Shown in pieces: positions 3,758 through 51,629 of a stretch of 64,000 nt of DNA. Where the stretch lies: the IMG/VR virus record IMGVR_UViG_3300023174_000034, one strand, 5' to 3'. Positions within the stretch are counted from its first letter, which is position 1. Each line of letters starts with the position of its first letter. The translations under genes were made by a program, and so were the position numbers. Below the pieces are notes generated by a model, which searched no databases, was not told the DNA's origin, and was given only the letters and a program-made list of their open reading frames with translations. This DNA comes from a virus (lineage: Duplodnaviria; Heunggongvirae; Uroviricota; Caudoviricetes).

Positions 3758-3975
3758 GATTCAAACTAGACATTACTGCTAATCCAGTACAGGGCGACAC
3801 CACGCCATGGAAACCAGTTTTCTTGCTATTTCCTAAACAAGTTGAAAACCAAATTGTTTGGCTTGAGACCGTGATGTGTCGTAAAATATTCTTAGTCAAA
3901 CAACGTTCTACCAAAGCTGGTCCTGTGCTGGGCGGCGGGTGGGACAAAGAATTCAAACTACCGGAGAATGTATGA
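3754..3975 (+). CDS. Hypothetical protein
   Basis: ATGA overlaps at both ends. Confidence 0.5.
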   Translation: MRFKLDITANPVQGDTTPWKPVFLLFPKQVENQIVWLETVMCRKIFLVKQRSTKAGPVLGGGWDKEFKLPENV

Positions 3976-6751: not shown

Positions 6752-6993
6752 TGCACCCACAATTTCTAAAGTCAATGAAGGTCAAAGTCAAGCGTCCAGT
6801 GGACCCAAATGCTCCGCCACGCCCAAACCTGCTGTCACAAGACAAAGAAATCCGCGGAATGAAAAGCACCAATGAGCTTGCTATGCAACAGATCATGCAG
6901 TTACAAGATCAGGTGCGTAAGCTAGAGCGCAAACTAGCACGTCAAACAGACTACCTGGGTGCGCTACACGCACAAATCCCACGAAAAAGGTAG
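6751..6993 (+). CDS. Hypothetical coiled-coil protein
   Basis: 80-aa ORF, heptad-like C-terminal half. Confidence 0.55.
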   Translation: MHPQFLKSMKVKVKRPVDPNAPPRPNLLSQDKEIRGMKSTNELAMQQIMQLQDQVRKLERKLARQTDYLGALHAQIPRKR

Positions 6994-8049: not shown

Positions 8050-8326
8050 TTTCAAACATTACAACATCCCTGCCCATACACAAGAAGCGTTGATCAACTA
8101 TACCGAGCGCGGCTACGAGCCTGGTGATTTTTTATACTGCGTGTTAGGTAACAATTTGCTGGGTGCTGTTAACATGGCAGATGCACAAAATTTGCCTGTA
8201 TTAAAAGATATTGTGCAATTTGTACACAACGAACTGCCCGAAAACTGCCGTGGTAATGAAGCTGTGGTCATACGGTTTTTACAAGAGCATCTAGGCCAAC
8301 GAAAAGGCCCAAAAGATATTGTGTAA
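8042..8326 (+). CDS. Early hypothetical protein
   Basis: AAGGAG SD; PGDFL...NNL..AV..AD. Confidence 0.65.
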   Translation: MLDFKHYNIPAHTQEALINYTERGYEPGDFLYCVLGNNLLGAVNMADAQNLPVLKDIVQFVHNELPENCRGNEAVVIRFLQEHLGQRKGPKDIV

Positions 8327-8350
8327 ACTGCGAATCTCTGTTACACTTGG

Positions 8351-8389
8351 TATAAATATTTGTATGCGGTGCCAACCGGGCCGCATACA
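8351..8389 (+). promoter_or_regulatory. T4-type late promoter plus leader hairpin
   Basis: TATAAATA 8351-8358, then TGTATGCGG-N11-CCGCATACA. Confidence 0.7.
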
Positions 8390-8416: not shown

Positions 8417-10339
8417 ATGGCTAAAATCATCGGTATCGATCTGGGTACCACAAACTCGTGTGTTGCCGTAATGGAAGGCAACGTTCCAAAAGTAATCGAA
8501 AACAGCGAAGGCGCACGTACTACCCCTAGTATCGTGGCATACGCCAATGACGAAGTTCTTGTTGGTGCAAGTGCAAAACGTCAGGCTGTTACAAATTCAA
8601 AAAATACCATCTACGCTGCCAAGCGATTGATTGGTCGTAAGTTCAAAGAAGACGCTGTACAAAAAGACATCGACATGATGCCTTTCAAAATTGTTGAAGC
8701 CAAGAATGGCGATGCCTGGATCAGTGCAAACAACAGCGAGCTAGCACCACCGCAAATCTCAGCTGAGGTATTGCGTAAAATGAAACAGACTGCTGAAGCA
8801 TACCTTGGCACAGAAGTGACCCAGGCAGTTATCACAGTACCTGCTTACTTCAACGACAGCCAACGTCAAGCAACCAAGGATGCAGGTAAGATTGCAGGCC
8901 TAGAAGTACTGCGTATTATCAACGAGCCCACAGCGGCCGCATTGGCATACGGCATGGACAAGGCTACCAAGAAGGATGCCAAGATTGTGGTTTACGATCT
9001 GGGCGGTGGCACATTTGACATTTCTGTTATTGAAATTGCCAACCTGGACGGTGACAAACAGTTTGAAGTTCTTGCCACCAATGGTGATACATTCCTGGGC
9101 GGTGAAGACTTTGACCAGCGTATCATGGACTACCTGGTTGACGAGTTTCAAAAGGAATCTGGTGTGGATCTAAGCAAGGACACACTGGCACTGCAACGTC
9201 TCAAAGACGCCGCAGAAAAAGCCAAGATTGAACTGTCTAGCAACACACAGACAGAAGTCAACTTGCCTTATATCACTGCTGATGCAAACGGCCCCAAGCA
9301 CATGGCAGTTAAACTAAGCCGTAGCAAACTAGAAGCTCTAGTAACCGACTTGGTAGAACGCTCAATCGAACCATGCCGTACTGCTCTTAAAGATGCAGGA
9401 CTAACTGCCGCAGACATCGACGACATTATCCTGGTTGGCGGACAAACTCGCATGCCAATGGTGCAAGGTTATGTGGAAAGCTTCTTTGGCAAGGCTCCAC
9501 GTAAAGACGTTAACCCAGACGAAGCAGTTGCCGCTGGCGCTGCCATCCAAGGTGCTGTGCTAGGTGGTGAACGCACGGACGTTCTGCTACTGGATGTCAC
9601 ACCACTCTCACTGGGTATTGAAACCATGGGCGGTGTAATGGCCAAGGTCATCACAAAGAACACAACCATTCCTACCAAGGGCAAAGAAACATTCTCTACT
9701 GCACAGGACAACCAACCCGCGGTGACCATCAAGGTATACCAAGGCGAGCGCGAAATGGCCACAGGTAACAAGCTGTTGGGTGAGTTCAACCTAGAAGGCA
9801 TTCCACCTGCCGCACGTGGTACTCCGCAGATTGAAGTTGCGTTTGATATTGATGCAAACGGTATCTTGAAAGTAAGTGCCAAGGACAAAGCAACTGGCAA
9901 GGAAAACAACATCACCATCAAGGCCAACTCAGGTTTAACAGAAGCTGAGATTGAACAGATGGTCAAGGATGCTGAACTCAATGCCGAGTCAGACAAAAAA
10001 GCCAAGGAACTGGCAGAAGCAAGGAATGCCGCAGAACATCAGATCTGGGGTGTTGAAAAGAACCTGGCCGAACATGGTGACAAACTTGACGAAGATCAAC
10101 GCGAAGCCATCAACACTGGCTTGCATGATCTCAAGAAGCTGGTTGCTGAAGAAAAGGACGTTGATAAAATCAATGAAGCTTTGCAGACATTTGTTCCCAA
10201 GTGCATGCCATTGTTTGACCTAGCAGGTGCAACTGAAGAAGCCAAGCAACGAGCAGATGCAGAAGAAGTCAAGATCAAGAAAGACAGCAAAGACGACAAT
10301 GTAGTTGATGCACAGTTTACTGAAGTCAAAGACAAATAA
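8417..10339 (+). CDS. dnaK: Hsp70 chaperone DnaK
   Basis: [33 protein letters not shown]; full length. Confidence 0.98.
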
Positions 10340-37083: not shown

Positions 37084-37433
37084 TCAAAGGTCTAATGGGC
37101 AGTCGCGGAGTAGTAGTAGATGGTGGCAACACCTCCGTGCCCTTTGTTAACGCAAATATCAACAATCCCATGACAGGTATGATTCGTATCCATGGAACTG
37201 ACATGCAGGTATTTGACGGATCAGGCTGGCTCAGTATGACTACCAGCTATGCCACAGTAGGACTAGAACCCACTGCCGAAGAAGCCATTAAATGGGTCAG
37301 GCACAAGATGGCAGAAGAGCAAGATCTCAAAGCTCGCATGGAACAACATCCTGGATTAAAGGATGCTTATGAGAAGTTCCGGATCATGGATATCCTAACA
37401 CTAGAAGAAAAGAAGCATGGACAAGAAGCCTGA
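37080..37433 (+). CDS. Hypothetical protein
   Basis: HPGLKDAYEKF; packed operon. Confidence 0.6.
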   Translation: MIKGLMGSRGVVVDGGNTSVPFVNANINNPMTGMIRIHGTDMQVFDGSGWLSMTTSYATVGLEPTAEEAIKWVRHKMAEEQDLKARMEQHPGLKDAYEKFRIMDILTLEEKKHGQEA

Positions 37434-39012
37434 ACAAGATGATCTAACTAGCAAACAGCTAGACTATGCTGTGTTCTTACCAGCTATCTCGGGCTTCTAT
37501 GCTACCTATGTGGGTAAACAACGTGATCCTGTCAACGGACCTTATGTTGATTCTGCACGTATGCCCACAGGCATGCCTAACATGGAATCAATGAACTGGC
37601 TCAACAGCAAGGAAGCATTGTTCCCTTACAAGTGGAGTTTGTATTCAGGTGGTCATGCCAACCTAGATCTCAACAAGCAAGACTGGTCAGAAGACATGGT
37701 TCGCTCGCGTGAGCCAGGTACGTTCATGCTAGGCGACTCTGGTGGATTCCAGATCGCTAAAGGCCTGTGGGAAGGCGACTGGAAGGCCAACTCGGGTTGC
37801 CCCAAGGCACAAAAGAAACGTGATGCTATTCTCAAATGGTTAGATGGCATTGCTGATTATGGTATGATCCTTGATATTCCAACCTGGGTCATCCACGATA
37901 AGAAAGCGAGCAAGGCATGTCAGATCACCACTTTGCAAGAAGCCGTAGACGCCACAAAGTTCAACAACGAGTACTTCATGAAGCACCGTCAAGGCAAAAA
38001 CAATGGCGGCGCAAAATTTCTAAACGTATTACAAGGCGATAATCATACATCCGCAGAGGATTGGTATCAGATTATGAAAGTCTATTGCGACCCTAGTGTG
38101 TACCCAGACACGCACTTTGATGGCTGGGCCATGGGTGGTCAGAACATGTGTGACATACACTTGGTTCTAAAGAGGTTGGTAGCATTGCGCTACGACAACT
38201 TGTTACAAGAAGGAGTTCATGACTGGATGCACTTCTTGGGTACAAGTAAACTAGAGTGGGCATGTTTGCTCACTGATATTCAACGTGCTGTGCGTAAGTA
38301 TGTGAACCCTAACTTCACAATATCATTTGACTGTGCTAGTCCTTTTCTAGCCACTGCCAATGGACAAATGTACCACCACATTGATTTGCCACACAATGAA
38401 AAGTGGTGTTATCGCATGAGTCCTAGTGCAGACGATAAAAAGTATGCCGTTGATACACGTATGTTCCGCGATGTAGTACTACAGGATGGAATATTTCCGC
38501 ATTTTGACGAGAGCCCAATAAGCCAGCATTTACAGATCAAAGATGTGTGCATTTATAAACCCGGCGATCTAAACAAGATCAAGAAAGAGGGCAAGACCAG
38601 CTGGGATAGCTTTAGCTATGCCCTCATGATGGGTCACAACGTATGGACGCACATTGAAGCAGTGCAACGTGCCAATCGTGAATACGATGCAGGCAAGTTT
38701 CCGACCATGATGTGGAACGAAAAAGGCGACCATGCCCGGTTCCGTGACATCGTGGATGCAATCTTTGCCGCACCAGACAAACAATCTGCACTGGACATTA
38801 TTGAATATTACAACAAGTACTGGATGGACATTATTGGTACTCGCGGATTCAAAGGTAAAAAGACTATGAATTCGCACAGCCAGTTCAATGTGCTATTCGA
38901 ATTTGTTGAAGAAACAGAACCTGAGGAGACAGAACGCGATGAGAAAATGGCAGAAGATTCAGCAGAAACTAGACTTGGAAATCTTGTTAGAGACGAACAC
39001 GGAGGAGATTAA
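37417..39012 (+). CDS. dpdA: TGT-fold transglycosylase, DpdA-like
   Basis: GDSGGFQ, MILDIP, LNVLQG, GWAMGG, MHFLG, SFDCASP; clustered with folE/queD/queE. Confidence 0.85.
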   Translation: MDKKPEQDDLTSKQLDYAVFLPAISGFYATYVGKQRDPVNGPYVDSARMPTGMPNMESMNWLNSKEALFPYKWSLYSGGHANLDLNKQDWSEDMVRSREPGTFMLGDSGGFQIAKGLWEGDWKANSGCPKAQKKRDAILKWLDGIADYGMILDIPTWVIHDKKASKACQITTLQEAVDATKFNNEYFMKHRQGKNNGGAKFLNVLQGDNHTSAEDWYQIMKVYCDPSVYPDTHFDGWAMGGQNMCDIHLVLKRLVALRYDNLLQEGVHDWMHFLGTSKLEWACLLTDIQRAVRKYVNPNFTISFDCASPFLATANGQMYHHIDLPHNEKWCYRMSPSADDKKYAVDTRMFRDVVLQDGIFPHFDESPISQHLQIKDVCIYKPGDLNKIKKEGKTSWDSFSYALMMGHNVWTHIEAVQRANREYDAGKFPTMMWNEKGDHARFRDIVDAIFAAPDKQSALDIIEYYNKYWMDIIGTRGFKGKKTMNSHSQFNVLFEFVEETEPEETERDEKMAEDSAETRLGNLVRDEHGGD

Positions 39013-39498: not shown

Positions 39499-40013
39499 TG
39501 GATCGTCCAGAACACAACGGTGCTCATATGTTTGTTGGCACTGAAGTAGAACATTCACCAGCACATGGCATGCGTACACTATTTGTAATTGGATTACAAG
39601 ATGCAACCAACGTGGTAGCAGCCGCTCAAGAACACAACTGTGAACACATCTACTTTGGCGCTAACATGAGCTTTCCTAATCCGTCGGTTAACAACAGCGG
39701 CGTTTGGAATCAGTGGGAAAACATGATTGGCTCATGTTTGATGCACGGCGCTTGGTGTACACTAGATATTGATGTCACCGCCGCAGAAGGTCTATTAGAA
39801 AGCACACTGATTGACCACGATCGCTTTATTCCAATGATCAGTGTAAAATTGCCCTATGCCAAACTATACAACTACAACACAACAATCAAGATCGACGACC
39901 GAGACTTCCAGGCAACCAACCCAGGTGTTTGGTGCCACAGTTTACACGAACTAAGAAATCGTGCAGTGTTTACTGACTGGTCTAAATATACTCAAGACAA
40001 GGTAATCAAATGA
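39498..40013 (+). CDS. Hypothetical protein in deazaguanine locus
   Basis: G.EVEH, HIYFGAN, DD.DF.ATNPGVWCH. Confidence 0.65.
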   Translation: MDRPEHNGAHMFVGTEVEHSPAHGMRTLFVIGLQDATNVVAAAQEHNCEHIYFGANMSFPNPSVNNSGVWNQWENMIGSCLMHGAWCTLDIDVTAAEGLLESTLIDHDRFIPMISVKLPYAKLYNYNTTIKIDDRDFQATNPGVWCHSLHELRNRAVFTDWSKYTQDKVIK

Positions 40014-40450
40014 CAGTACAAGCATACAGAGAACAAACAGAAGTAAACCGCGAAGTAGCGGATAGAATGATCTGGGTTAAGTTTCAAAAGGAAGGTATCC
40101 ATTGCTATCCAGCGGCGGCAACTGAGCCCTTGCTAGCAGATGTATCTTTTTTGGCCAACCCGCATCGACACATATTTCATTTCAGAGTTTCGATCAGCGT
40201 GTTCCATAATGATCGCGATATTGAATTCATCCAATTCAAGCGTTGGTGTGAAGGCCTTTATTCAGGTGGCACACTGGCACTCGATTATAAGTCATGCGAG
40301 ATGATTGCAGACGACTTATATATCCAAATTAACTTGCGCTATCCAGGTAGACATGTTATTATAGAGGTAAGCGAAGATAACGAAAACGGTTGTAGTATCG
40401 TTTACGAAGATCCTCGCACACCCGAAACAACCTTCCATCACCCAGTCTAA
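40010..40450 (+). CDS. dpdL: T-fold QueD paralogue, DpdL-like (putative CDG decarboxylase)
   Basis: LANPHRHIF (LxxxHRHxF), DRDIEFI, SCEMIA, VSEDNENG. Confidence 0.7.
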   Translation: MTVQAYREQTEVNREVADRMIWVKFQKEGIHCYPAAATEPLLADVSFLANPHRHIFHFRVSISVFHNDRDIEFIQFKRWCEGLYSGGTLALDYKSCEMIADDLYIQINLRYPGRHVIIEVSEDNENGCSIVYEDPRTPETTFHHPV

Positions 40451-43898: not shown

Positions 43899-44902
43899 GC
43901 ACAGTATTCGTAACAGGTGCAACAGGCTACATTGGTAGTCATGTTTGCAAAGCATTGAAACAAGCAGGCTACGAAGTTGTCGGGCTTGATCGTGTGCATA
44001 GAGAGCACACAATGAAGCACATGGATCGTTTTATTGAAGCCGACTATCATAGTTCCATGTGCTTTGATGCACTAGCAAAAGAACAACCAGATGCTGTTAT
44101 TCATCTAGCAGGTACCAGCCTGGTTGGCCCAAGCATGGCAGACCCTGGCGAATACTACACCAACAACGTGGCCAAATCTGCGGCATTTTTAGATGTTGTA
44201 CGTTGGTTGGAAAAAATGCCTGTGGTTGTGTTTTCAAGTTCAGCCGCTGTGTATGGCAATCCAGAAGTAGATGTCATTTACGAAAATCAGCCATACAATC
44301 CAACCAGCCCATATGGTCAGACCAAGGCCATGATTGAAATCATACTAGTGGATTTTAACAAAGCATACGGTTTGAAAAGTGCAAGCCTGCGCTACTTCAA
44401 TGCCTGTGGTGCTGATCTAGATGGTGAACTAGGACAAGAGCCGGGCGCCACACACATCATTGCTAGACTACTAGAATCAAAACAAGCAGGTGTTCCATTC
44501 ACGCTGTATGGTGAAGATTATGACACACCAGATGGCTCTTGCATTCGTGACTATGTGCATGTGGTTGACCTAGCAGATGCACATGTAAAGGCTGTGAGCT
44601 ACTTGTTGAGTGACATGGAAGAGTGCATTGCAGTCAACCTGGGTGGTACATCTGGATTGACAAAAGGCCAAGGACACAGCAACAAAGAGATCATATCCGC
44701 AGTAGCAGATATAGTAGGCAACATTGATGTTGAGCCGGGTCCACGCAGGCCAGGTGATCCTGCTAGATTGGTTGCAGGCACCCTGACTTCTGTTACCAAG
44801 CTAGGATGGAGTCCCAAACATTCAGATCTTAAGACCATCATCGAGTCAGCATGGAAGTGGTATAATAACCCGCCACAATCCATTGACAATTCATCTAAAT
44901 AA
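43895..44902 (+). CDS. galE: UDP-glucose 4-epimerase
   Basis: GATGYIGSH, FSSSAAVYG, YGQTK, LRYFNA, RDYVHV.DLA.AH. Confidence 0.92.
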   Translation: MSTVFVTGATGYIGSHVCKALKQAGYEVVGLDRVHREHTMKHMDRFIEADYHSSMCFDALAKEQPDAVIHLAGTSLVGPSMADPGEYYTNNVAKSAAFLDVVRWLEKMPVVVFSSSAAVYGNPEVDVIYENQPYNPTSPYGQTKAMIEIILVDFNKAYGLKSASLRYFNACGADLDGELGQEPGATHIIARLLESKQAGVPFTLYGEDYDTPDGSCIRDYVHVVDLADAHVKAVSYLLSDMEECIAVNLGGTSGLTKGQGHSNKEIISAVADIVGNIDVEPGPRRPGDPARLVAGTLTSVTKLGWSPKHSDLKTIIESAWKWYNNPPQSIDNSSK

Positions 44903-44952
44903 CTTTACAATACAAACAAAGTCATCCACGACTATTAACTCGGAGAAATAAA
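44883..44952 (+). promoter_or_regulatory. folE promoter and structured leader
   Basis: TTGACA(44883)-17-TACAAT with internal TAAATA; leader AGTC-ATCCAC-GACT-ATTAACTC-GGAG. Confidence 0.65.
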
Positions 44953-45696
44953 TTGGTAGATACACAAACAGCATTAGACGCCATGGCCGGAGACGGCGGC
45001 TACGAACTAGGCACAGCACACAAACACATCGCATTCAAACTGCGCCGCGATAACAAGCGTTTCTGGGCAGGCGACAACATCAGCGATTACGTCGACGAAC
45101 AGGCCAAAGAACAGTTAATCGATGAAGCAACAGCGGCATTTGAACTTGTGCTAGATACGCTACTAATTGATCGCCAAACAGATCCCAACAGCCGAGGCAC
45201 AGCTCGACGCCTGGCCAAGATGTACTTTAATGAAATAATGGCAGGAAGATATGATCCAGCACCAGATGCAACAGCGTTCCCAAATGATTCGGCAGACCGT
45301 TACGAAGGCATGCTTGTGGTTAGAAGTGAACTACGCTCAATGTGTAGTCACCATCACCAGCCTGTATCTGGTGTCGCTTATATTGGGATTATCGCCGCAG
45401 AAAAGCTCATTGGTTTGTCTAAGTACACTCGCATTGCTCAGTGGTGCGCTCGTCGCGGCACTTTGCAAGAAGAACTGGCCAATGACATTGCACGAGAAAT
45501 ACAAAAAGCCACAGGAGCCACAGACCTAGGTGTGTACATTCAAGCTGTACACGGATGCTGTGAGAATCGTGGTATCATGGCACACTCCAGTCTAACGCAG
45601 ACTACTGTGCTCAAAGGTGCATTCAAGGACGATGGCAATACAAAGAAGGAATTCTTTGATAACATTAAACTACAACAGGAGTTTGCACCAAGATGA
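44953..45696 (+). CDS. folE: GTP cyclohydrolase I
   Basis: SMCSHH, IGLSK..R, LQE, HGCC..RG; TTG start. Confidence 0.96.
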   Translation: MVDTQTALDAMAGDGGYELGTAHKHIAFKLRRDNKRFWAGDNISDYVDEQAKEQLIDEATAAFELVLDTLLIDRQTDPNSRGTARRLAKMYFNEIMAGRYDPAPDATAFPNDSADRYEGMLVVRSELRSMCSHHHQPVSGVAYIGIIAAEKLIGLSKYTRIAQWCARRGTLQEELANDIAREIQKATGATDLGVYIQAVHGCCENRGIMAHSSLTQTTVLKGAFKDDGNTKKEFFDNIKLQQEFAPR

Positions 45697-47793: not shown

Positions 47794-48285
47794 ATGATAG
47801 AAGGTAAAAAAGTTGGCTTCACAGCCTCAACGTTTGATTTGCTACACGCAGGGCATATTGCCATGCTTCGTGAATCAAAACAAAAATGCGAGTACTTGAT
47901 TTGTGCTTTGCAAAACGATCCAACACTGGATCGTCCTAACAAAAATCGTCCTGTTCAGAGTGTTGTAGAACGACAACTGCAACTGGTAGGTTGCAAGTAT
48001 GTGGATGAAGTATGGGTCTACAACACAGAAAAGGATCTAGAAGATTTGCTTCTAGTGCTTCCAATTGATGTGCGTATCCTTGGTGTTGAATACGAAGGCA
48101 AAGAATTCACAGGTCGTGAAATCTGTCACAAACGAAACATTGATCTATACTTCAATGGGCGTGATCATAGTTTTTCTAGCAGTGAGCTACGCCAGCGTGT
48201 GGCCAATGCAGAAGATTTGAAAAAGAAACTACAGGCCTTTGAGCCAGTGGGTGCAGATGATACAGGTGGTCCTAGCCCACGATAA
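47794..48285 (+). CDS. Cytidylyltransferase (TagD/RfaE-II like)
   Basis: STFDLLHAGH, ER...L...KYVDEV, FSSSELR. Confidence 0.88.
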   Translation: MIEGKKVGFTASTFDLLHAGHIAMLRESKQKCEYLICALQNDPTLDRPNKNRPVQSVVERQLQLVGCKYVDEVWVYNTEKDLEDLLLVLPIDVRILGVEYEGKEFTGREICHKRNIDLYFNGRDHSFSSSELRQRVANAEDLKKKLQAFEPVGADDTGGPSPR

Positions 48286-48371
48286 ATAATTCCCAAGCGG
48301 CCTTTTCTGGCATTCATCCCGCTATACAAACTCTGCAGGCCTATGCTATAATCTAACATAGGAGAAACAGC
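48283..48371 (+). promoter_or_regulatory. Structured queD leader (riboswitch candidate)
   Basis: TAAATA; stem AGCGG/CCGCT; A-rich tail; SD-sequestering CCTATG/CATAGG hairpin. Confidence 0.55.
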
Positions 48372-48878
48372 ATGTCAACACTACACCCAGTGGTATACAA
48401 ATACCAAAGCACCAAAGAGTATCATGACGCATTCCCATGCGCTTATCGTCAATGGAGAAGTGACAGTCATTGTAATCTAATACATGGCTACTCATTCTCA
48501 ATGAAGTTCTATTTTGGAACCAATGACCTAGACGTTCGCAACTGGGCCGCGGACTACGGTGGACTCAAAGAACTCAAGAAGATACTTGAAGATCAATTTG
48601 ATCATACTCTAATTGTAGCACAAGATGATCCAGAAATGGCCACATACAAGCTACTGCAAGAACGGAACATGGCCAAGGTTGTGGTTCTACCACGACTAGG
48701 TTGCGAAGGCCTAAGCGACATGCTGTACAAGTATGTGAATGGTGTGTACATTCCGGACATGTGGGGTCCAAGCGAAGCCGCCCGTTTATGGTGTTATCGT
48801 GTGGAAGTTCGAGAAACCCAAAGTAACATGGCTTTCCGTGAAGGTCATCGCGAATGGAATGAAAATCTACTTGACTAA
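48372..48878 (+). CDS. queD: 6-carboxytetrahydropterin synthase QueD (copy 1)
   Basis: SHCNLIHGY, DYGGLK, FDH, GCE, VRET. Confidence 0.88.
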   Translation: MSTLHPVVYKYQSTKEYHDAFPCAYRQWRSDSHCNLIHGYSFSMKFYFGTNDLDVRNWAADYGGLKELKKILEDQFDHTLIVAQDDPEMATYKLLQERNMAKVVVLPRLGCEGLSDMLYKYVNGVYIPDMWGPSEAARLWCYRVEVRETQSNMAFREGHREWNENLLD

Positions 48879-48930
48879 CATCTAGTGTTGTGTTACACTG
48901 TATTACTTTCAATCACTCTTGGAGTTTTCA

Positions 48931-49476
48931 ATGGCACGTAGATTTAGCACAAAAACTTATGGTAACGAACGTGGTCTAAGCTGTACCTTTCGACAACATG
49001 CCGCAACGCATAGTCATTGCAGTCTGTTACATGGATACAGTTTAGGTTTCAAATTTGTGTTCGAAGCAGAACAACTTGATGCACGTAACTGGGTACAAGA
49101 CTTTGGCGGCCTAGGTGAGCTCAAAGAGTTCCTTGAAAAAACATTTGATCATACCACTATTGTTGCAGAAGACGATCCACTAATCAAGCATTTCCAGAAG
49201 ATGGCTGGCTGGAGTGCAGTCAAAGACATGCATGGCAAGCCTGAAGAAGTTCAAGGCCACCCTGTAGGCAACAAGGGTGTGATCAAACTGATCACAATGC
49301 CTGCTGTGGGTTGCGAAGCGTTTGCTGAGTATGTGTGGCGCTGGACTGATCAATGGTTAAAAGAAGATCCAACCAACAAGTATCAAAACTTGTTGGGAGA
49401 TGACATGCAACGTGTCAAGATTCTAACAGTTGAAGTGTTTGAGCACGGTAGCAATTCAGCAATCTACGAAGGGTAA
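48931..49476 (+). CDS. queD: QueD (copy 2)
   Basis: SHCSLLHGY, DFGGL, FDH, GCE, VFEH; own TTGACT promoter at 48871. Confidence 0.88.
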   Translation: MARRFSTKTYGNERGLSCTFRQHAATHSHCSLLHGYSLGFKFVFEAEQLDARNWVQDFGGLGELKEFLEKTFDHTTIVAEDDPLIKHFQKMAGWSAVKDMHGKPEEVQGHPVGNKGVIKLITMPAVGCEAFAEYVWRWTDQWLKEDPTNKYQNLLGDDMQRVKILTVEVFEHGSNSAIYEG

Positions 49477-49879: not shown

Positions 49880-50739
49880 TAATAACAGGTGATCGCGGCC
49901 TGATTGGCAGCGAACTCAAGGCTCGGCTACTAGCACAAGGCATCCGAGTCCACTCACTAGACTGGAGTGATCGTGGTAAAACATACACCTTGGAAGAGCC
50001 GCTGGAGTGGATTTTCCACATGGGTGCTATCAGCGAAACTATTGCCAGTGACTGGCAAGAGTTGGTCAAGAAGAATATCGAAGACACGCAGAACTGGATT
50101 CAGTTTGCACAACAAAACAACTGCGGCATTACCTACGCAAGTTCAGCAAGCCTATACGGCACTTGGTCAAACAGTCCAGAATGGGGGCCGGTACAACCCA
50201 TGCACATGTATGGGGTGAGCAAGCTGGCAGTGGACAACTGGTGTGCCACACAACAATTCACAGTACCAGTACAAGGTGTGCGTTTCTTCAATGTGTACGG
50301 ACGCAACGAAGGGCACAAACAACAACCAAGTCCCATACGCCGTTACATTGAACAAGGTATTGTGCAACGCAAGCTAACAGTATTCCAGCATGAAGGTAGA
50401 CTAGGCTCACGTGACTTCATAAGTATAGATGACTGTATAAATGCCATGCTTCGTCTAAAGGACGCAGGTGTAAGCGGTGTATACAACGTTGGCACAGGTG
50501 TGCAACTGACATTCAAAGATATTGCAGAATCAATACAAAAACGATTTGGTGTTGAAAATGTACAGGTACTTGTTGTGCCCATGCCTGATCATATGGTCAA
50601 AACATATCAGTGGGAAAGTCAAGCAAACTTAAATAAACTCAAAGCCGCCATTGGCGAGTGGAATCCACTTTCGGTTGATGACTGGCTTGAAGAAAATTTT
50701 GAAACTCTATATAATAAGATACAGAAGGAAATATTATGA
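49873..50739 (+). CDS. ADP-L-glycero-D-manno-heptose 6-epimerase-like SDR
   Basis: TGDRGLIG, IFHMGAISET, YASSASLYG, YGVSK, RFFNVYG, RDFI. Confidence 0.8.
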   Translation: MVIITGDRGLIGSELKARLLAQGIRVHSLDWSDRGKTYTLEEPLEWIFHMGAISETIASDWQELVKKNIEDTQNWIQFAQQNNCGITYASSASLYGTWSNSPEWGPVQPMHMYGVSKLAVDNWCATQQFTVPVQGVRFFNVYGRNEGHKQQPSPIRRYIEQGIVQRKLTVFQHEGRLGSRDFISIDDCINAMLRLKDAGVSGVYNVGTGVQLTFKDIAESIQKRFGVENVQVLVVPMPDHMVKTYQWESQANLNKLKAAIGEWNPLSVDDWLEENFETLYNKIQKEIL

Positions 50740-51629
50740 AACTAAAAGTAAGTGAAATGTTCTACAGCCTACAAGGTGAAGGTCGCTTTGTAGGCGTGCC
50801 TAGCGTGTTCTTGCGTACATTTGGTTGTAACTTCAAATGCGAAGGGTTTGGCATGCCACGTGGTGAGGCCAGTCAAGAACGCAATCTAGTAGATGCTACC
50901 AAGTATGAAAAGTTTACAGACCTACCACTTGTACACACCGGTTGCGACAGCTATGCTTCATGGGATCCCAAGTTCAAAGATCTAAGTCCTGCAAAAGACA
51001 TCGACGCTATTGTTACTGAAATGCTGGCAATGACTCCGAATGGTCGTTGGCAACAATACAATGGTAACCCAGTACACTTGGTTATCACAGGTGGTGAGCC
51101 ACTGTTGGGTTGGCAAAAGGTGTATCCTGACTTGCTAGAACACCCAGCCATGATTGGGCTAGATAACATCACGTTTGAGACCAATGGCACCCAGCCGCTG
51201 ACGGATGAGTTCCAGGACTACATTGAACACTGGCATACACAATGGCGTGGTACCCATGAAGATGATCATCAAGAGTACATTGGTCGTTTCCGTGAAATGC
51301 AATTCTCTGTTAGTCCCAAGCTGAGTGCGTCGGGCGAAAAGTGGGAAGAAGCTATCTGTCCAGAGATCATTGCTGAGTATCAGCGTGTGGGAGTCACATA
51401 CTTGAAGTTTGTGGTTGAAAAGCCAGAAGACTTTGCAGAAATTAACCAAGCCGTGGGAGAATACCGCTTGGCAGGCTTCTTAGGGCAAGTGTATGTTATG
51501 CCAGTTGGTGGTACCACACAAGGTTACGATGCCAACAAACTTGCCATCGCCAATGAATGTTTGCGCCAAGGTTATGCCTATAGTCCACGTCTACATGTAG
51601 ACTTGTGGGGCAATGGCTGGGGCAAGTGA
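50736..51629 (+). CDS. queE: 7-carboxy-7-deazaguanine synthase QueE
   Basis: SEMFYSLQGEG...FLRTFGCNFKC, CDS, VITGGEP, ETNG, SPK, PRLH. Confidence 0.92.
   Translation: MKLKVSEMFYSLQGEGRFVGVPSVFLRTFGCNFKCEGFGMPRGEASQERNLVDATKYEKFTDLPLVHTGCDSYASWDPKFKDLSPAKDIDAIVTEMLAMTPNGRWQQYNGNPVHLVITGGEPLLGWQKVYPDLLEHPAMIGLDNITFETNGTQPLTDEFQDYIEHWHTQWRGTHEDDHQEYIGRFREMQFSVSPKLSASGEKWEEAICPEIIAEYQRVGVTYLKFVVEKPEDFAEINQAVGEYRLAGFLGQVYVMPVGGTTQGYDANKLAIANECLRQGYAYSPRLHVDLWGNGWGK

Follow-up and report, generated by a model that had tools for sequence, protein, structure and literature searches.

Among described RNAs, the preQ1-I riboswitches (RF00522; types I–III, for example from C. antarcticum, B. subtilis queC, T. 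tengcongensis and E. coli) resemble the leaders examined here in being small H-type pseudoknots that stand before genes of the same pathway. In SAM-II and SAM-V riboswitches, too, the fold is H-type; P2 is split, and conserved pyrimidines of L1 cross the major groove. The preQ1-I pocket is defined by an L1 uridine and an L3 adenine, with the C before the P1 3′ strand as the specificity base, and in type III members the Shine–Dalgarno (SD) sequence is buried in P2 (PMC11625349). THF-II riboswitches, known as the folE motif, precede folE and bind reduced pterins, with a KD of ~18 µM for 7,8-dihydroneopterin (PMC6800512). In T4 gene 32, the mRNA leader pseudoknot is a protein operator that controls translation and is bound by its own ssDNA-binding product, gp32. 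Phage pseudoknot operators are thus documented (PMC10690425).

In the phage 7-deazaguanine pathway, FolE converts GTP to 7,8-dihydroneopterin triphosphate (H2NTP), which QueD uses up, and gene sets of the type described here predict 7-deazaguanine in DNA; the study that describes the pathway makes no mention of how the pathway is regulated, and DpdL activity itself is unproven in it (10.1101/2023.04.13.536721).

We analysed a 64,000-nt stretch of viral DNA (the window), which appears to come from the large genome of an uncultured tailed phage; related records are 350–380 kb long. Pfam confirmed the folE and queD identities that an earlier note on this DNA had assigned from the letters alone (Table 1). 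The DpdL-like protein is 60% identical to a protein of Acidovorax phage ACP17 and 35% identical to one of phiST. The 531-residue product of 37417–39012 is read as TGT/DpdA-like from its motifs only; it has no Pfam, PHROG or NCBIfam match and is 36% identical to proteins of the Pseudomonas jumbo phages PA5oct and Paride. Between 40640 and 50739, the deazaguanine genes are interspersed with sugar-handling genes (two NDP-sugar epimerases, a cytidylyltransferase and a probable glycosyltransferase), a phosphoribosyltransferase gene and a cupin gene. A second QueD paralogue at 48919–49476, 34% identical to the first (48372), has its own sigma70-like promoter; its leader lacks the pseudoknot described below, as do those of five close homologues. 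Full-length QueC was found in none of 32 related records (best partial matches 29.7 bits, against 172 bits for a true QueC), and DpdL is present in 25 of the 32, including all four near-complete motif carriers; phage-made preQ0 or preQ1 is therefore unlikely.

Table 1. Leader elements, promoters and pathway genes, numbered from the first letter of the window.
Feature	Position	Strand	Details
DpdL-like T-fold gene, proposed CDG decarboxylase	40010–40450	+	LxxxHRHxF signature (10.1101/2023.04.13.536721)
folE promoter, TTGACA-17-TACAAT	44883–44911	+	nested TAAATA at 44896–44901; same layout in many homologues
folE (minimal) form	44920–44945	+	P1 AGUC 44920–44923 / GACU 44930–44933; loop AUCCAC; L3 44934–44941; SD GGAG 44942–44945
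folE, GTP cyclohydrolase I	44953–45696	+	UUG start; Pfam PF01227, E 1e-37
TAAATA late-type promoter core	48283–48288	+	8 nt before P1; predicted start ~48294–48295; overlaps stop codon of upstream gene
queD form, P1 5′ strand, AGCGG	48296–48300	+	99.7% of cells paired; two-sided changes in 3 of 5 pairs
queD form, loop L1	48301–48308	+	variable base, conserved CU, variable linker; CCU 53, UCU 49, ACU 29 of 131
queD form, P2 5′ strand, GGCAUUCA	48309–48316	+	pairs with 48334–48341
queD form, loop L2	48317–48318	+	C48318, next to the P1 3′ strand, is conserved (invariant column)
queD form, P1 3′ strand, CCGCU	48319–48323	+	pairs with 48296–48300
Nested sigma70-type promoter, TATACA-18-TATAAT	48323–48352	+	TG extension; 10 of 12 match; transcript, predicted to start near 48359, would lack knot and anti-SD strand
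queD form, A-rich loop L3	48324–48333	+	ends A-Y-U-C; invariant A, U and C columns
queD form, P2 3′ strand, UGCAGGCC	48334–48341	+	switching strand, overlaps anti-SD; alternative pairing with SD or start codon in 131 of 131
Anti-SD hairpin, CCUAUG 48340–48345 / CAUAGG 48357–48362	48340–48362	+	covers first bases of SD (AGGAG 48360–48364); 69 of 76 of subtype identical, most variants still pair
queD-like gene (PTPS family), presumed target of leader	48372–48878	+	PF01242, E 3e-14; PHROG 2389
queE-like radical SAM gene	50736–51629	+	PHROG 2076, E 2e-53; leader without either form

The queD pseudoknot and the minimal folE form

The folding energy of the single queD leader is unremarkable relative to shuffled sequences (z 0.17). 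Because single-sequence folding does no better than shuffles, we turned to homologues, and the support presented here is comparative. On that evidence, the queD leader from 48296 to 48341 is a real, conserved H-type RNA pseudoknot, and the presence of a conserved RNA structure is close to certain. P1 and P2 are kept by compensating changes across ~130 distinct phage leaders, a result confirmed on independent metagenome matches. P1 shows 6, 13 and 15 coupled changes on the QueD tree; the extraction patterns required P1 pairing, but anchor-only extraction and pattern scans turned up almost no real leader in which P1 is broken. The outer part of P2 forms at least four of five pairs in 127 of 131 leaders, with a mean of 4.24 of 5 versus 3.72 (maximum 3.86) for permuted partners, above all 2,000 permutations. 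The inner P2 pair (A48316–U48334 in the window), with pairing not forced, is A:U in 136 sequences, G:C in 4 and mismatched in none. When metagenomes were scanned with a pattern that left out A:U and admitted nine other combinations, all 19 queD-linked matches carried G:C and none of 56 mismatch matches preceded queD; pattern scans revealed no long form whose inner pair was C:G or U:A. P2 also contains a conserved U-C mismatch.

The element precedes the gene in 89 of 93 QueD matches; of the other four, three lie at contig ends, and in one the element is present but stands before an inserted gene. Its conserved unpaired bases (the CU of L1, the C that precedes the P1 3′ strand, several adenines in L3 and its closing Y-U-C) are concentrated at the P1/P2 junction, and the L1 CU was already visible in the anchor-only extraction of leaders. 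By analogy with preQ1-I, C48318 is a candidate for the base that reads a guanine-like ligand face (PMC11625349). The earlier note had drawn P1 and the pairing of CCUAUG with CAUAGG over the SD, and both prove conserved in homologues, beyond chance. It placed these strands correctly, as it did GGCCU/AGGCC, the promoter box TGCTATAAT and the folE string at 44922–44941. The competing switch that it proposed between GGCCU (48299–48303) and AGGCC (48337–48341) did not survive comparison, being possible in 5 of 144 homologues; the conserved partner of 48334–48341 is 48309–48316, the pseudoknot pairing that it had missed.

The element in folE leaders is shorter (~26 nt, compared with 46 nt for the queD form) and was matched in 68 of 117 leaders with a first pattern and in 73 of 117 with a wider one. 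We know of no riboswitch this small. Comparison of homologues supports its P1 stem, which is 100% paired over three core pairs, two of them covarying, with 40 and 16 coupled changes on the FolE tree. The loop reads A-U-C-C-N-C, and the tail AAC(A)UC is followed by GGAG, the SD. The loop (U)CC may pair with GG(A) of the SD as P2; this pairing would consist of two or three invariant pairs and so admits no covariation evidence. In variants with one or two extra L1 bases, the distance from CC to the P1 3′ strand is unchanged.

In structural register, the two forms share the core U-C-x-N-C ... Y-U-C-x′-G, where x:x′ is A:U or G:C in the queD form and C:G in the folE form. They differ in L1 (NCU versus AU), in P1 length and in the P1 closing pair, which is G-C in 140 of 140 queD-form sequences versus 3 of 126 folE-form sequences (mostly C-G), and neither form's covariance model detects the other form. 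We infer that both belong to one class with a common ligand. Rather than one motif copied twice, the leaders represent two separate forms whose predicted outputs are opposite. The folE form is absent at 23 of 48 queD-form loci, counts inflated by those loci that had been retrieved through their motif. The literal motif that the earlier note had seen in both leaders stands in part: its 3′ AA-CUC lies in structural register, whereas its 5′ half aligns non-equivalent residues because the 'UC' belongs to the covarying folE stem. Among folE homologues, UCAUCC occurs in 45 of 131 and CUAU in 5 of 131. A pattern made from this motif, and drawn after the fact, occurs at three places in the window versus 0.16 expected.

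The queD form shares with preQ1-I a 5-bp P1 closed by G-C and an A-rich L3, and the C directly before the P1 3′ strand, C48318 in the queD leader and C44929 in the folE leader, is invariant in both of our alignments. The queD form has both P1 and P2 of an H-type pseudoknot; the folE form has P1 and a possible but invariant P2, in which the SD would be buried as in type III. The pocket residues differ. The conserved first L1 uridine of preQ1-I (U6, which reads ligand N9) corresponds to C, U or A in the queD form (53, 49 and 29 of 131) and to A in the folE form, and where preQ1-I has the L3 adenine that ends the A run before P2 (A30), the queD form has Y-U-C and the folE form mostly C-U-C. The G-C pair that serves as the pocket floor is general in the queD form and rare in the folE form, as counted above for the closing pair. 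RF00522 has no match in the window at the gathering threshold or at E<10, and none above cut-off in five phage records. We rejected preQ1-I membership because, despite the similar shape, neither the L1 U nor the L3 A is conserved and RF00522 gives no score.

THF-II resembles the folE form only, in its position before folE, a ribosome-binding site within the structure and a predicted translational OFF output. It is bacterial and ~60 nt long, with two stems around an internal bulge and no pseudoknot, whereas the folE form is a 26-nt hairpin plus tail; membership was rejected because the P1–bulge–P2 architecture is absent and no Rfam match was found. SAM-II and SAM-V are alike in fold features and differ in conserved sequence and genes, again with no Rfam match here. 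The T4 gene 32 operator is likewise a leader pseudoknot that controls translation of a phage mRNA, but the genes here encode metabolic enzymes and the two copies are oppositely wired. Freshwater-2 (RF02980) is found in these phage genomes as well, and it too has a GCGG/CCGC-like stem ahead of an SD; its true copies lie elsewhere in those genomes, before a different gene (73–74 bits), and a queD leader region scores ~18 bits versus a cut-off of 49.9, which led us to reject this identity. In three jumbo-phage records (L464, L465 and L466), freshwater-2 lies ahead of a conserved gene whose product begins MGRP, an indication that phages carry this 'environmental' motif.

Rfam yielded no relevant match in the window at gathering or E<10. 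A full-text literature search found no description of either leader; an unnamed entry is possible in the supplements of the 224-motif paper or of the ten-thousand viral RNA catalogue. The proposal of the earlier note that the queD leader is an uncatalogued cis-regulatory structured RNA of preQ1-I-like architecture, with a related element at folE, is supported.

Gene specificity and phage distribution

Both forms are specific to their genes. In a sequence-only scan of IMG/VR, a QueD-family gene follows directly in 71 of 77 matches to the long form with intact P1, and folE in 69 of 79 matches to the short form; in most of the remaining matches the gene stands in second place or is cut off. Of matches without P1, 1 of 73 precedes a QueD-family gene or folE. 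One strong copy lies directly before QueD in 23 of 25 large QueD-bearing records and one before folE in 16 of 26 records, and this holds even where folE and queD are 50–70 kb apart. The forms are never swapped, the queD form occurring only before QueD genes and the folE form only before folE. Neither was found in the leaders of 159 queE, 77 dpdL or 26 TGT-like genes, a set inflated by motif-fetched loci, so that the comparison suggested earlier, of homologous leaders with those of other genes, came out in favour of the motif: it is present in homologues and absent before queE, dpdL and dpdA.

Both elements are nearly confined to one phage clade. A search of bacterial genomes with one exact variant per form gave 2 and 8 matches, only two of which (L396 and L483) precede queD or folE, both on short phage-like contigs in MAGs. 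The cultured phages ACP17, PA5oct, Phosso and RHph_I1_18 have no strong match to either form's model.

Several individual records deviate from the common arrangement. In seven (L351, L359, L365, L071, L201, L227 and L133), unrelated genes lie between the motif and queD or folE; the leader keeps the head of the unit, and the first gene differs. The folE gene near 10190 on the minus strand of record L223, which has an intact short motif, contains an in-frame TAG ~18 codons in, reflecting a broken gene, an assembly error or a recoded stop.

Vibrio phage 2.275.O (MG592671.1), which carries queC, queF and a YhhQ transporter gene, has at 6845–6886, before queC, a queD-form P1 (AGCGG/CCGCU) and L3 followed directly by the SD. 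This stretch scores 17.7 bits (E 5e-4) with the long-form model and may be an intermediate form or a chance match; a pattern built for it retrieved unrelated matches and no relatives. At 8300–8376 of the same genome, before folE, a UGCGG/CCGCA stem has UC before its 3′ strand and an A6 run, and its loop GUA can pair with the tail UAC. This leader looks like a preQ1-I type I fold and has no RF00522 score. In Sinorhizobium phage Phosso, the region 3850–3914 before folE contains a UGUGG/CCACA stem whose 3′ strand is preceded by C, and a long tail rich in A and C that reaches the SD; both models miss it, and it is possibly a distant variant.

Initiation-site pairing and promoters

As is general for riboswitches, conserved structure in the 5′ leaders of related genes here overlaps an expression platform. 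Every one of the 131 distinct queD leaders offers the P2 3′ strand an alternative partner in the initiation region; for random 6-mers the figure is 51%. Three layouts achieve this: an anti-SD hairpin (76 leaders, including that of the window) and two start-codon pairings (37 and 12 leaders). With the P2 3′ strand blocked, the initiation site opens at a mean cost of 4.2 kcal instead of 7.4 kcal, and the drop exceeds 1 kcal in 116 of 131 leaders, as calculated with a nearest-neighbour model, which cannot score pseudoknots. Since the queD-form P2 captures the strand that hides the initiation site, formation of the knot predicts that translation is ON; the folE-form knot uses up the SD and hence predicts OFF. 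We consider it very probable that these leaders regulate translation. The window copy is an outlier, in which a second pairing (UAUGCU with AGCAUG, at the start codon) persists once P2 forms. Modelling gives it a gain of no more than 0.5 kcal at the SD and no gain over the SD-to-AUG region, unlike 70 of the 76 leaders of its subtype, and the predicted ON effect in this copy is accordingly weak.

TAAATA occurs in 23 copies on the plus strand of the window and 3 on the minus strand, and 17 of the 23 plus-strand copies lie within 110 nt of an ORF start versus 19% expected; within the window it behaves as a putative promoter. It stands at most 14 nt from P1 in 59 of 76 leaders of the window's subtype. 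The nested sigma70-type promoter, with its −10 box TGCTATAAT at 48344–48352, is found in 69 of 76 leaders of the subtype and in 0 of 49 of the other two, and in the transcript that it would yield the SD is nearly open (0.2 kcal). The subtype of the window would thus probably produce an unregulated shorter transcript beside the regulated one. In the other two subtypes, 36 of 49 leaders have a promoter just upstream of P1; because none of the 49 has the internal promoter, the motif must be transcribed there. The earlier note had reasoned that transcription from the internal promoter only would exclude the motif from the RNA, and for the family this is not the case. One RNA run contained contigs of relatives only, mostly <90% alike, and has no bearing on transcription starts or expression.

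Two further candidates at this locus were rejected. An antisense sigma70 site at 48378–48350 recurs in 1 of 131 leaders and is attributed to chance. A stop-codon readthrough or frameshift signal after the upstream gene is not supported, as the frame closes at 48349–48351 and the upstream genes vary.

Candidate ligands and rival explanations

A small-molecule riboswitch of some kind is the likely function of these leaders. Within that, our preferred reading is that both are translational riboswitches of one phage-borne class sensing a shared reduced-pterin signal, a proposal to which we give somewhat less than even chances. A guanine-like small metabolite would bind at the P1/P2 junction, pair with the conserved C and stabilise P2. 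In the queD form, the stabilised P2 would capture the strand that masks the ribosome site or start codon and turn translation ON; in the folE form, P2 would be built with the SD and turn it OFF. Because OFF at folE combined with ON at queD favours one signal lying between the two enzymes and fits an end product poorly, the simplest shared signal would be H2NTP or a related reduced pterin, which fits in offering a guanine-like pairing face for the conserved C; the binding of 7,8-dihydroneopterin by THF-II riboswitches before folE is a precedent (PMC6800512). When H2NTP is plentiful, the phage would halt its synthesis, and only then would it channel H2NTP towards deazaguanines, so that the folate branch is spared. 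In the window's subtype, the nested sigma70 promoter would supply an unregulated transcript and the upstream TAAATA promoter the switched one. We found no dedicated riboswitch for dihydroneopterin triphosphate in the literature. The fullest version of this proposal, a phage-native class that senses H2NTP and is used twice with opposite output at the branch between folate and DNA-modifying deazaguanine, its ~26-nt folE form being the smallest natural riboswitch, is on balance somewhat unlikely.

Both leaders might instead be riboswitches for different or other ligands, the folE form sensing CDG or 7-deazaguanine and the queD form H2NTP, GTP or guanine, or both sensing a deazaguanine. The preQ1-I-like fold with its conserved C would suit such ligands, feedback circuits usually place an OFF switch on the first enzyme, CDG/DG is the end point of the pathway in these phages, and the divergence of L1 and of the P1 closing pair would be natural if the ligands differ. 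However, an end product that turns queD ON would be positive feedback, neither form precedes queE, dpdL or dpdA, and the junction core is common to both forms; we regard this explanation as unlikely. For the queD form in particular, the deazaguanine end product put forward in the earlier note as a ligand is disfavoured, an argument that follows from the inferred ON wiring. Somewhat less favoured again is a protein partner, namely FolE, QueD, DpdL, the TGT-like protein or a regulator, whose binding would repress folE, open the queD site and balance enzyme amounts. The gp32 operator provides a precedent, the elements are nearly confined to one phage clade, the folE form has only ~26 nt, and a conserved hairpin loop beside the SD is typical of operators. 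Against such an operator, the junction residues are fixed while the downstream QueD proteins range from 37 to 94% identity, the two forms occur independently of each other, and the C before the P1 3′ strand, A-rich L3 and marginal P2 together make up the layout of ligand-gated pseudoknots.

A constitutive structure, in which a pseudoknot at the 5′ end stabilises the mRNA or fixes its translation rate without switching, is very improbable. It would account for the position of the element a few bases past the predicted transcription start and for the little switching modelled in the window copy, but three unrelated platform layouts all retain a pairing with the initiation site that excludes the knot, and stability requires neither invariant unpaired bases nor strict gene specificity. 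That the conservation acts on DNA only, through nested promoters or an operator palindrome with no RNA structure, is largely refuted and hardly credible: L3 does double as the −35 box and TGCTATAAT as the −10 box in 69 of 76 leaders of the window's subtype, yet the 49 leaders of the other subtypes keep the whole structure without that promoter, and coupled two-sided changes, G-U pairs and variable spacing are signatures of RNA.

From sequence comparison, these leaders are probably an uncatalogued pair of riboswitches. If this is true, they would represent the first regulatory mechanism for the phage 7-deazaguanine DNA-modification pathway, and if the partner is a protein, they would still constitute an uncatalogued phage system of translational control. 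Validation of the class would bring riboswitch chemistry a further ligand and pocket, and would show that phages keep metabolite-sensing RNAs of their own, not only host-derived ones.
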